4,386 bases of DNA, taken from IMG/VR virus record IMGVR_UViG_2534681998_000004. One strand, 5' to 3'. The position numbers and the translations under genes are program-made. The notes below the pieces were generated by a model. That model did no database searches and was not told where the DNA came from. It saw nothing but the letters and a program-made list of their open reading frames with translations. Below are positions 3,039 to 4,304 of this stretch, in pieces. How positions within the stretch are numbered: the first letter of the stretch is position 1; each line of letters opens with the position of its first letter. The stretch comes from a virus (lineage: Duplodnaviria; Heunggongvirae; Uroviricota; Caudoviricetes).

Positions 3039-3596
3039 ATGACCACTATTACCAAAGATCGACTGCTGACAATCCAGCATTGGCGCGAAACATACGGACC
3101 GGGTAGCAACGTTGTGCTTCCAGCAGAAGAAGCGGAAGAGCTGGCACGGATTGCGCTGGCATCACTGGCAGCAGTATCGGATGAACGAGCAGCCTATGAA
3201 TTATTTATGGAGAAGCGTTTCGGAGAATCTGTAGATCGCCGCAGAGCAAAAAATGGCGATAGAGAATACATGGCATGGGATATGGCGCTTGGCTGGATTA
3301 TCTGGTGTCACCGCGCCGCCATGCTTCAGGCTGGAAACTTTCGGGAAAATAAGGGTTCGTCAACCAATAATTTTCGGATAATCTCGGAAACGTCAACCAA
3401 CTCTCCGGCAATCCCTGATGAGGTGTTGTCCGCAATCCTGAAGGTCGCCAGGCTTCGTGCAGATTTCGATGCTTCTGAAGTGGACAGGCGAGGTATCGGT
3501 AGTTGTCTGGATGAGGCCGAGCAAGAACTTATCGTTACCATTAACGAATACGCCAGTCAGATCGCAGTAGAAGCGACACAGGGGGAGAACCAATGA
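3039..3596 (+). CDS. Hypothetical prophage protein (185 aa)
   Basis: ATG at 3039 starts 2 nt after the upstream stop, with AAGGTGA at 3025-3031 at 7-nt spacing. Long ORF with balanced composition; stop TGA 3594-3596. Confidence 0.6.
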   Translation: MTTITKDRLLTIQHWRETYGPGSNVVLPAEEAEELARIALASLAAVSDERAAYELFMEKRFGESVDRRRAKNGDREYMAWDMALGWIIWCHRAAMLQAGNFRENKGSSTNNFRIISETSTNSPAIPDEVLSAILKVARLRADFDASEVDRRGIGSCLDEAEQELIVTINEYASQIAVEATQGENQ

Positions 3597-3670
3597 GCCG
3601 GCCAGATGCATTTGCAGGCGTTGCTATAGCTATTGCTTTTCTAGTATATGTTATTTGTCGGTGGGGGTAA
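3593..3670 (+). CDS. Candidate 25-aa hydrophobic peptide (MSRPDAFAGVAIAIAFLVYVICRWG), not in the ORF track
   Basis: ATG 3593 overlaps the upstream stop as ATGA; GGGGGAGA at 3581-3588 gives about 4-nt spacing; stop TAA 3668-3670. Single predicted TM-like segment. Too short for statistical support; hand-translated. Confidence 0.3.
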   Translation: MSRPDAFAGVAIAIAFLVYVICRWG

Positions 3671-3705: not shown

Positions 3706-3810
3706 ATGTCGGATGATATTTCACTGGTAATGGAAGGCGCTCTGGCTGTTATTGCTGTTGTGGGTGTTTACTGCCTGGTTGTGTTTTTGATGGAGCGCCT
3801 GGGGAACTGA
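3706..3810 (+). CDS. Candidate 34-aa small membrane peptide (MSDDISLVMEGALAVIAVVGVYCLVVFLMERLGN), not in the ORF track
   Basis: ATG 3706 preceded by a strong purine-rich SD, AAGGGAGGG (3694-3702); stop TGA 3808-3810. One clear hydrophobic helix. Hand-translated. Confidence 0.4.
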   Translation: MSDDISLVMEGALAVIAVVGVYCLVVFLMERLGN

Positions 3811-3850: not shown

Positions 3851-3878
3851 TTGCTGTAAAGCGAGAGTTAAGTAGAAT
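3851..3878 (+). promoter_or_regulatory. Candidate sigma70 promoter for the hok-like mRNA (-35 TTGCTG 3851-3856, 16-nt spacer, -10 TAGAAT 3873-3878)
   Basis: The -10 matches TATAAT at 5 of 6 positions, the -35 at 3 of 6. The predicted start near 3885 coincides with the 5' element that is complementary to the mRNA 3' end, giving a transcript of about 420 nt, as expected for hok-family mRNAs. Confidence 0.4.
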
Positions 3879-3881
3879 TGC

Positions 3882-3896
3882 TGCGGGTGCTTGAGG
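3882..3896 (+). promoter_or_regulatory. hok mRNA 5'-end element complementary to the 3' end (fold-back inhibition, 5' partner)
   Basis: TGCGGGTGCTTGAGG (3882-3896) pairs with CCTCAACGCACCCGCA (4259-4274) over 15 bp with one bulged nucleotide; complementarity checked by hand. Confidence 0.5.
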
Positions 3897-3930
3897 CTGT
3901 CTGCCTCGGGCATGCCACCGTAAGGCAGAC

Positions 3931-4005
3931 AGAGAAAAGCCCCAGTTAACATTACGCGTCCTGCAAGACGCTTAACATTAATCTGAGGCCCAATCTATGC
4001 TTCAC
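3931..4005 (-). ncRNA. sok: Candidate Sok-like antisense RNA (antitoxin of a type I TA system); ends approximate
   Basis: Minus-strand candidate promoter: -35 TTGCCT (+4040..4035), 17-nt spacer, -10 TAACCT (+4017..4012), predicting a start near +4004. The transcript would be antisense to the mok start codon (3997-3999) and its SD (3985-3988), as in plasmid R1 hok/sok. No canonical terminator found; a U-rich run (complement of +3931-3939) is a possible 3' end. Confidence 0.3.
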
Positions 4006-4209
4006 AAACGTAGGTTAGCCTCTTACGCGCCGAAAGGCAAGGAGAAGCAGGTTATGAAGCAGCAAAAGGCGATGTTAATCGCCCTGATCGTCATCTGTTT
4101 AACCGTCATAGTGACGGCACTGGTAACGAGGAAAGACCTCTGCGAGGTACGAATCCGAACCGGCCAGACGGAGGTCGCTGTCTTCACAGCTTACGAACCT
4201 GAGGAGTAA
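3997..4209 (+). CDS. mok: Mok-like in-frame upstream reading frame (70 aa) that contains hok; analogous to the MokC arrangement as I recall it
   Basis: ATG 3997 with GAGG at 3985-3988 at 8-nt spacing; same frame as hok and the same stop. Whether it is translated as a separate product is inferred from the hok-family paradigm. Confidence 0.5.
   Translation: MLHKRRLASYAPKGKEKQVMKQQKAMLIALIVICLTVIVTALVTRKDLCEVRIRTGQTEVAVFTAYEPEE
4054..4209 (+). CDS. hok: Hok/Gef-family type I toxin (51 aa, small membrane peptide)
   Basis: ATG 4054 with AAGGAG at 4039-4044 at 9-nt spacing; stop TAA 4207-4209. The product MKQQKAMLIALIVICLTVIVTALVTRKDLCEVRIRTGQTEVAVFTAYEPEE has the Hok signature (TM helix, then TRK-x-LCE-x-R and EVAAF/EVAVF-x-AYE). 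From memory it is very close to E. coli HokD (RelF) and HokC (Gef). Confidence 0.85.
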   Translation: MKQQKAMLIALIVICLTVIVTALVTRKDLCEVRIRTGQTEVAVFTAYEPEE

Positions 4210-4258
4210 GAGACCAGGCGGGGGAGAAATCCCTCGCCACCGCTGATGTGTCAGGCAT

Positions 4259-4274
4259 CCTCAACGCACCCGCA
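4259..4274 (+). promoter_or_regulatory. hok mRNA 3' element complementary to the 5' end (fold-back inhibition, 3' partner)
   Basis: CCTCAACGCACCCGCA is complementary to 3882-3896 and sits immediately upstream of the terminator hairpin, as expected for the 3' partner of hok mRNAs. Confidence 0.5.
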
Positions 4275-4277
4275 CTT

Positions 4278-4304
4278 AACCCGCTTCGGCGGGTTTTGTT
4301 TTTT
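4278..4304 (+). terminator. Rho-independent terminator of the hok-like transcript
   Basis: Stem AACCCGC (4278-4284), loop TTCG, stem GCGGGTT (4289-4295), followed by TTGTTTTTT (4296-4304). Confidence 0.8.

Follow-up and report, generated by a model that had tools for sequence, protein, structure and literature searches.

A HokD/HokW-type hok/sok cassette, probably intact, in the early-right region of a lambdoid prophage

hok/sok is a textbook type I toxin-antitoxin system, and the cassette considered here, at positions 3851–4304 of a 4,386-nt stretch of tailed-phage DNA (IMG/VR record IMGVR_UViG_2534681998_000004; hereafter the window), belongs to this family. In plasmid R1, the full-length hok mRNA is held by tac/fbi and ucb/Shine-Dalgarno (SD) pairings, the processed mRNA by tac/ucb and SD/dcb pairings, and the nascent transcript by a metastable hairpin; dcb lies next to the sok -10 element, and a 3′ stem-loop shields Tr-hok from 3′ exonucleases (PMC9841398). 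A prophage-borne cassette of the same type, hokW-sokW, is co-oriented with the early genes of the Stx2 phage Sp5 in strain Sakai (Takada et al. 2021, PMC8621323). There, the 51-aa HokW is toxic on its own and sokW is protective; after mitomycin C sokW vanishes, and HokW appears RecA-dependently and goes to the inner membrane (PMC8621323). Deletion of hokW-sokW halves phage release, that is, the locus raises release about two-fold on induction (PMC8621323). The third point of comparison is hokD (relF), which lies in the cryptic prophage Qin of Escherichia coli K-12 and whose product serves as a known-toxic control (bioRxiv 10.1101/2025.08.07.668861).

Against this background, positions 3851–4304 very probably hold an intact hok/sok type I cassette of the HokD/HokW kind, carried by a lambdoid prophage and most likely to operate through an R1-like mechanism. 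An initial annotation, made by a model from the letters alone, had called the region a complete hok/sok-type cassette, and six lines of analysis agree with that call: the protein family, the Rfam leader, a covarying mRNA, the mok SD, a sokW-like antisense promoter and the comparison with K-12. The sequence elements, their conservation and covariation across relatives, and the identity to known loci were observed directly. We consider the cassette probably functional.

The toxin gene, the mok frame and their nearest relatives

The toxin gene (4054–4209, plus strand) encodes a 51-aa protein (MKQQKAMLIALIVICLTVIVTALVTRKDLCEVRIRTGQTEVAVFTAYEPEE) and lies inside a mok reading frame of 70 codons (3997–4209, plus strand) that is in frame with hok. 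The initial annotation had described exactly this nesting and had named a protein search against PF01848 (HOK_GEF) as a check; coordinates, Pfam and HokD identity are in accord, with both products well above the cutoff of 22 bits (Hok 82.9 bits, Mok 81.6 bits). PHROG 251, 'MokW-like host killing', matched the 51-aa product at 114.7 bits. Hok is identical to K-12 HokD (RelF) at 51/51 residues and to the HokW-type peptide of the Sp5-like Stx2 phage at 47/51, and shares 42% identity with R1-type Hok. We adopt the subfamily name hokD because of the identity to WP_000813254.1/HokD, under which the peptide is annotated in public genomes; NCBIfam was uninformative for naming.

Comparative analyses drew on 59 genomic loci with Mok/Hok relatives, from E. 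coli, Shigella, E. albertii, E. ruysiae, Kluyvera, Citrobacter, Pantoea, Erwinia and Photorhabdus, and on an alignment of 41 distinct full-length mRNAs that includes an added hokW-type locus and an R1-type plasmid locus. Both SDs that the initial annotation had reported can be read from the sequence: AAGGAG (4039–4044, plus strand), 9 nt 5′ of the hok ATG and part of a CAAGGAG that is nearly invariant in the alignment, and GAGG (3985–3988, plus strand), 8 nt 5′ of the mok ATG at 3997. All 41 loci carry a mok ATG 56–58 nt upstream of the hok ATG, together with a GAGG SD. The frame of mok relative to hok is 0 in 30 loci, +1 in 5 and +2 in 6; six of the 11 out-of-frame versions are only 19 codons long and stop at the hok start. 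The position of mok has therefore been kept and its product has not, a pattern that would fit the accepted view that translation of mok, rather than the mok product, is what matters.

The closest characterized relative is the hokW-type copy of Stx2 converting phage I, which is Sp5-like and contains the published hokW primers; the two DNAs share 92.5% identity across 93% of the 454 bp. Its mok frame is likewise in frame and 70 aa long, and its tac and fbi elements are identical to those in the window. The two copies differ in position, the hokW-type copy sitting among ea-type genes near the attachment site and the present one between replication/ea22-like genes and DUF968-RusA-Q. They also differ in the Sok 5′ tail (5 of the first 15 nt) and in the Hok C-terminus (TAYEPEE here against VDYESEK), and the canonical terminator that follows fbi here is missing from the hokW-type copy. 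The latter locus (L002, 3001–3423) diverges directly after fbi, and the source of the 3′ end of hokW mRNA is not evident from its sequence.

K-12 hokD encodes the identical Hok peptide. The two DNAs are nearly the same over the stretch that runs from the hok SD to the terminator and takes in the 3′ UTR and fbi, and the downstream genes (ydfU/DUF968 and one that is Q-like) are equivalent. On the 5′ side of the hok SD, K-12 has relBE (relE) sequence instead, so that promoter, tac, ucb, sok and mok are all lacking. Compared in this way, the window copy reads as the ancestral, complete form of K-12 hokD. The initial annotation had contrasted the cassette with degenerate chromosomal copies, which is correct for hokD: the K-12 alignment keeps only the hok SD onward. 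Decay is seen elsewhere among the genome loci as a mutated tac (L013) or disrupted open reading frames (ORFs; L052 and L057), and a further locus (L051) is also listed among those with a mutated tac or broken ORF.

Relative to R1/IncFII hok/sok (parB), the DNA is too diverged for blastn, yet the layout is the same, with tac, fbi, ucb, dcb, mok SD, metastable hairpin and 3′ protective hairpin all represented and the sok promoter in the same place with the same 17-nt spacing. The carriers differ, a prophage here and a plasmid for R1, and stabilization of the carrier is known for R1 and not for the present cassette. Chromosomal loci of the hokC (gef)/sokC type (L025, L028–L036) share family and architecture and have CACTCT at the sok -10 position; the hokC locus of K-12 itself is disrupted by an insertion element (PMC12214031).

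The hok coding sequence also contains a potential editing site. The Tyr47 codon, TAC (4192–4194, with A at 4193), is followed by G, giving UACG, within sequence identical to K-12 hokD, and TACGAA is nearly invariant in the 41 aligned loci. K-12 hokD mRNA is reported to undergo low-level (6%) A-to-I editing that yields the conserved Cys46-equivalent cysteine (PMC12214031). By analogy, editing at A4193 could tune the toxicity of the prophage copy. Two minus-strand ORFs overlapping the cassette, of 54 aa and 42 aa, were set aside as chance frames by position, with no database search made for them; they overlie the conserved hok coding and structured RNA regions.

Structure and conservation of the hok mRNA and Sok

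A covariance-model search, which the initial annotation had named as a further check, matched Rfam RF01794 ('sok') at 3885–4059 on the plus strand with 114.9 bits (gathering score 59), spanning the entire model (positions 1–157 of 157). Because this model is in the hok-leader sense, the match identifies the leader and the mRNA 5′ end at G3885, not the antisense RNA. The RF01794 consensus ends at the hok AUG, and automated 'Sok' annotations based on it therefore point to the hok leader, which lies on the opposite strand from the antisense RNA.

The predicted full-length hok mRNA (3885–4304, plus strand) has a 5′ end placed by alignment to R1-type and other members and, with its 3′ end at the terminator, would measure about 420 nt, in agreement with the length first proposed (420 nt from G3885, a start set by homology). 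Upstream lies a candidate hok promoter (3851–3878, plus strand) with a -35 TTGCTG (3851–3856; 3/6 consensus matches), a 16-nt spacer and a -10 TAGAAT (3873–3878; 5/6). Its support is comparative: in nearly all of the diverse loci listed, a TAnnnT-like hexamer stands exactly 6 nt 5′ of a conserved GGG start (one reads GAAAAT; judged by eye), within otherwise unrelated flanks. Downstream, a terminator scan found an intrinsic terminator, AACCCGC-UUCG-GCGGGUU then UUUGUUUUUU (4278–4304, plus strand; stem 4278–4295 with a UUCG loop, then TTTTGTTTTTT), which bears out the terminator of the initial annotation and is shared with K-12 hokD and several genome loci.

Folding of 3885–4304 gave a minimum free energy (MFE) structure of -174.9 kcal/mol (z = -6.5) in which the two ends of the transcript pair, as the initial annotation had suggested. 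The tac element at the 5′ end (GGGUGCUUGAGG; 3885–3896, plus strand) and the fbi element (CCUCAACGCACCC; 4259–4271, plus strand) form a duplex of 6 + 6 bp with one bulged C and an energy of -19.8 kcal/mol, equalled by 19 of 2000 shuffles of the 3′ segment. In the same fold, the ucb or anti-SD element GCCCC (3939–3943, plus strand), part of an AGCCCC that is invariant in the mRNA alignment, pairs with the mok SD. When the RNA is truncated to 3885–4250, the 5′ end, tac, re-pairs with AAGCCCC (ucb) and the mok SD pairs with GCCUC (4018–4022, plus strand), the dcb element, which adjoins the sok -10. The first 30 nt of the transcript alone fold to -18.8 kcal/mol, predicting a metastable 5′ hairpin (3887–3913, plus strand) formed by tac and the sequence just 3′ of it. 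The full-length, truncated and nascent folds, as modelled, reproduce the R1 hok pairings exactly.

The 3′ UTR contains a 9-bp stem-loop (4216–4237, plus strand) in the MFE fold, recovered as helix 11 of the alignment with compensatory changes in 4 pairs; by analogy with R1, it is likely the protective 3′ end of the processed mRNA. Two small-RNA families resemble the region 4213–4299 below threshold, isrK (27.2 bits against a gathering score of 50, E = 0.005) and rsmX (21 against 56), and both were rejected, the scores being driven by the two 3′ hairpins. The resemblance of the hok 3′ UTR to isrK, an Hfq-binding prophage sRNA, is probably a generic hairpin-plus-terminator similarity. A reading of the 3′ UTR as the Hfq-bound processed sRNA PasA was also dropped. 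The preprint that reports PasA close to Sok hits places pasA by the holin/lysozyme operon and near RusA/TerB, a position downstream of the window.

Covariation across the 41 loci supports these structures. RNAalifold recovered the tac/fbi helix unprompted, along with ten other helices, and the roughly 12-bp tac/fbi duplex is kept in 41/41 loci. Alignment columns 4 and 430 within it hold U-A in 26 sequences and C-G in 12, and the second half of the helix shows further compensations, for example G12A with C to U in Photorhabdus. Standard pairs fill 96.9% of cells, against 38–44% when the partners are slid by 1–3 columns, a control that is somewhat favourable as the structure was derived from the same alignment. 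The compensatory counts are the stronger evidence: double changes occur in 22 pairs, a number reached by 0 of 500 shuffles. A comparison of cognate and non-cognate tac/fbi energies (mean -20.4 versus -18.9 kcal/mol) was discarded as a test of specificity, the gap being small because most loci share the same tac.

The full cassette is present in 74 of the best 80 IMG/VR loci, at 93.5–100% identity and in 50 sequence variants. No variation occurs in the sok -10, sok -35, mok SD or ucb across these prophage variants, and almost none in tac and fbi, whereas neighbouring segments vary. The most variable segment is 3997–4011, the 15 nt from the mok ATG to the sok -10, with a mean minor-allele fraction of 0.156 versus 0.006 in the hok coding sequence; it has three main alleles among the 50 variants, with further alleles in hokW and other paralogues. 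The Sok 5′ tail and its target are both specified by this segment, whose variation could mean either that constraint on the Mok N-terminus is relaxed or that selection in multi-copy genomes favours Sok/target pairs that do not cross-react.

The predicted sok promoter lies on the minus strand (4012–4040), with a -35 TTGCCT (4040–4035), a 17-nt spacer and a -10 TAACCT (4017–4012). It matches the consensus at 4/6 and 3/6 positions, and its hexamers and spacing are those of sokW. Among the 41 loci, the -35 reads TTGnnn in all and the -10 TAnnnT in 34, at a spacing of 17–18 nt. In sokW, it is precisely this -10 that is changed in the 'pro-less' mutant (primer YO-421); protection is then lost, and sokW in trans partly restores it (PMC8621323). 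At the sequence level, then, the antisense promoter candidate of the initial annotation corresponds to one that has been tested by mutation. The predicted Sok RNA (3932–4005, minus strand; about 70–75 nt, with ends placed from the -10 position and the U-run) would comprise a single-stranded 5′ tail, a long hairpin (3937–3991) and a U-rich tail. The antisense strand from about position 4005 folds to -31.7 kcal/mol (z = -4.6), and the hairpin pairs covary (helix 3 of the 41-locus alignment). The R1 and Photorhabdus loci have a hairpin about 20 nt shorter than that of this group (alignment columns 87–106).

Together, these features suggest a mechanism modelled on R1 hok/sok and hokW-sokW, and every sequence requirement of the R1 pathway is present and under selection. 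A weak constitutive promoter would yield a stable hok mRNA of about 390–420 nt, whose 5′ metastable hairpin would prevent translation of the nascent transcript. The finished mRNA would be closed by tac (3885–3896) and fbi (4259–4271), with ucb GCCCC sequestering the mok SD. Slow 3′ trimming to the 4216–4237 hairpin would then remove fbi, allowing the 5′ end to re-pair with ucb and the leader to open. Short-lived Sok (about 70 nt, from the minus-strand TTGCCT-17-TAACCT promoter) would bind the opened leader across the mok start, blocking translation of mok and the coupled translation of hok and marking the duplex for RNase III. Once Sok synthesis stopped, the accumulated mRNA would be translated, and the 51-aa Hok would enter the inner membrane and depolarize or lyse the cell. 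For this copy, transcription, processing, Sok action and toxicity are expected by analogy with these relatives.

Biological role and alternatives

Several observations weigh against the reading as an intact, working cassette. NCBIfam returned sub-threshold matches only (Hok-family model, 48.5 against 73; HokA model, 40.2 against 89), scores that fall short because these models represent other subfamilies. Searched with Hok, Mok and three neighbouring proteins, PADLOC gave no match; it contains no model for Hok, so that no defence role can be read from databases, and this null result reflects database content and leaves room for an exclusion activity. A consensus promoter scan called neither the hok nor the sok promoter, both being weak matches. 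The plausible upstream promoter of the initial annotation thus stood as a candidate with comparative support and did not stand as a scan call; given that both promoters were missed, we relied on homology and conservation instead. The plus-strand promoter that the scan did call, TTAACA-18-TATGCT (3972–4001), falls inside the Sok hairpin and the mok start, has no comparative support and was rejected. The 3′ end of the mRNA is uncertain, the hokW-type locus being without the terminator hairpin. Finally, intact elements do not guarantee activity: according to a preprint's summary of earlier work, chromosomal hokA, hokB and hokC, whose elements are apparently intact, failed at post-segregational killing (bioRxiv 10.1101/2025.08.07.668861).

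What the cassette does for its carrier is the least certain part of the analysis. By analogy with hokW-sokW, the most likely role, to which we would assign perhaps half of our confidence, is that of an induction-coupled lysis helper aiding phage release; addiction or phage exclusion is a possible role and the main alternative, and carriage as an inert passenger a possible minor one. An addiction or abortive-infection module, in which prophage loss or transcription shut-off by a lytic phage would stop Sok and allow Hok to kill, is a credible but less favoured explanation. Unstable Sok combined with stable hok mRNA responds to any stop in transcription, R1 hok/sok stabilizes plasmids, and expression from a high-copy plasmid lowered T4 plating by 42%, the last two as cited in PMC8621323. 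The one prophage-borne copy with direct data, however, acted instead on phage release at induction (PMC8621323). That the cassette is structurally intact yet a silent, hitch-hiking remnant, like several chromosomal hok loci, seems to us distinctly unlikely. Both promoters are poor consensus matches, and a given copy may be redundant where a genome has up to 10 related places. Yet the regulatory boxes are invariant or nearly so in the 50 prophage variants while adjacent sequence varies, 22 base pairs have been maintained by covariation across genera, and activity has been demonstrated for hokW-sokW, a 92%-identical paralogue (PMC8621323). Copies that have truly decayed, moreover, look different, as in the truncated K-12 hokD and in L013, L051, L052 and L057 with their mutated tac or broken ORF.

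Least probable of all, to the point that we give it very little weight, is that the 70-aa mok frame is itself the real product, an N-terminally extended Hok, with no separate coupling role for mok. The in-frame arrangement here and in 30/41 loci would permit such a product, and public annotations often call only the 70-aa 'MokC/MokW' coding sequence (CDS). Against this stand the 11/41 loci with mok out of frame, including the six whose 19 codons end at the hok start, the variability of the N-terminal extension, greater than that of any other part of the cassette, the strong, nearly invariant AAGGAG SD that hok has of its own, and the toxicity of 51-aa HokW by itself (PMC8621323). Returning to a role at induction, co-orientation with antiterminated early transcription means that read-through could silence the convergent sok promoter by transcriptional interference. 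We consider it rather unlikely that placement and fine variation are both functional in this manner, with read-through on induction silencing sok and the variable Sok tail and target keeping co-resident copies orthogonal. If so, transcriptional interference would account for the way Sok is lost, RecA-dependently, in the hokW system, Hok would act as a built-in timer linking induction to lysis, and the variation at 3997–4011 would keep up to 10 co-resident hok/sok copies per genome orthogonal.

Prophage setting and distribution

The cassette lies in the middle of a prophage, in the early-right (replication-to-Q) region of a lambdoid genome. When the whole window is compared with prophage Sp6 of O157:H7 Sakai, 96% of its length matches at 99.0% identity, and the Sp6 record annotates the 70-aa frame as 'regulatory protein MokC for HokC'. 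In Sp6 and a related prophage of the O157 strain PV15-279, the order is integrase, repressor/cro, O/P-type replication, DUF1627/ea22-like accessory genes, hok/sok, DUF968, RusA, Q and lysis genes. The cassette is thereby placed about 10 kb inside a lambda-like prophage (Sakai annotation 1541611–1590033, about 48 kb), in the nin-equivalent region and co-oriented with early genes. The initial annotation had put it at the edge of a prophage gene block; it is at the edge of the window, and the gene orders of Sp6 and the PV15-279 prophage show that it is not at the edge of the prophage.

The cassette recurs widely. Hundreds of O157/O26 genomes, and other E. coli genomes too, carry the 454 bp with 100% identity and annotate it as hokD, and 3953 of 5426 complete E. 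coli genomes have a copy that spans 80% or more of the query, at a median of 2 and a maximum of 10 places per genome. Matches also occur in 79 deposited phage genomes, and at least 594 IMG/VR viral contigs encode a relative. In a crude ORF count within 4 kb of the IMG/VR loci, the hok strand held 83% of long-ORF bases, indicating that the cassette is usually co-oriented with early phage genes. A preprint reports a four-fold enrichment of hok in prophages (bioRxiv 10.1101/2025.08.07.668861). Near-identical E. coli-type cassettes were also recovered from short contigs assigned to Veillonella, Xanthomonas, Acinetobacter, a 'Scatousia' metagenome-assembled genome (MAG) and a Haemophilus MAG (L009, L012, L039, L049 and L054); these five assignments most likely reflect contamination or mis-binning rather than true hosts.

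The cassette is already known, being annotated as hokD/mok in thousands of genomes, with its close paralogue hokW-sokW characterized in 2021. As it stands the finding adds little, and its modest value is that of a clean reference. The complete hokD form can be used to ask what hokD-type modules do at the nin-region position of lambdoid prophages, and the cassette to ask whether the several copies in enterohaemorrhagic E. coli (EHEC) cross-talk.

The remainder of the window is a run of phage genes on the same strand, closing with the hok/sok region. It includes a lambda-P-type replication protein (17–478; Pfam), a DUF1627 protein and an Ead/Ea22-like protein (both by Pfam); several further ORFs match PHROG families of unknown function. 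In the accessory region upstream of the cassette lies a DUF4406 protein (1539–1841; Pfam, 115 bits), whose PHROG match carries a nucleoside 2-deoxyribosyltransferase annotation. Just 5′ of the cassette are two tiny hydrophobic ORFs, of 25 aa (3593–3670; MSRPDAFAGVAIAIAFLVYVICRWG) and 34 aa (3706–3810; MSDDISLVMEGALAVIAVVGVYCLVVFLMERLGN). Neither matched NCBIfam or PHROG, and Pfam, searched with the 34-aa ORF only, gave no match. Both could be small membrane peptides, and in O157 genomes the equivalent position holds a 34-codon CDS annotated as a hypothetical protein.

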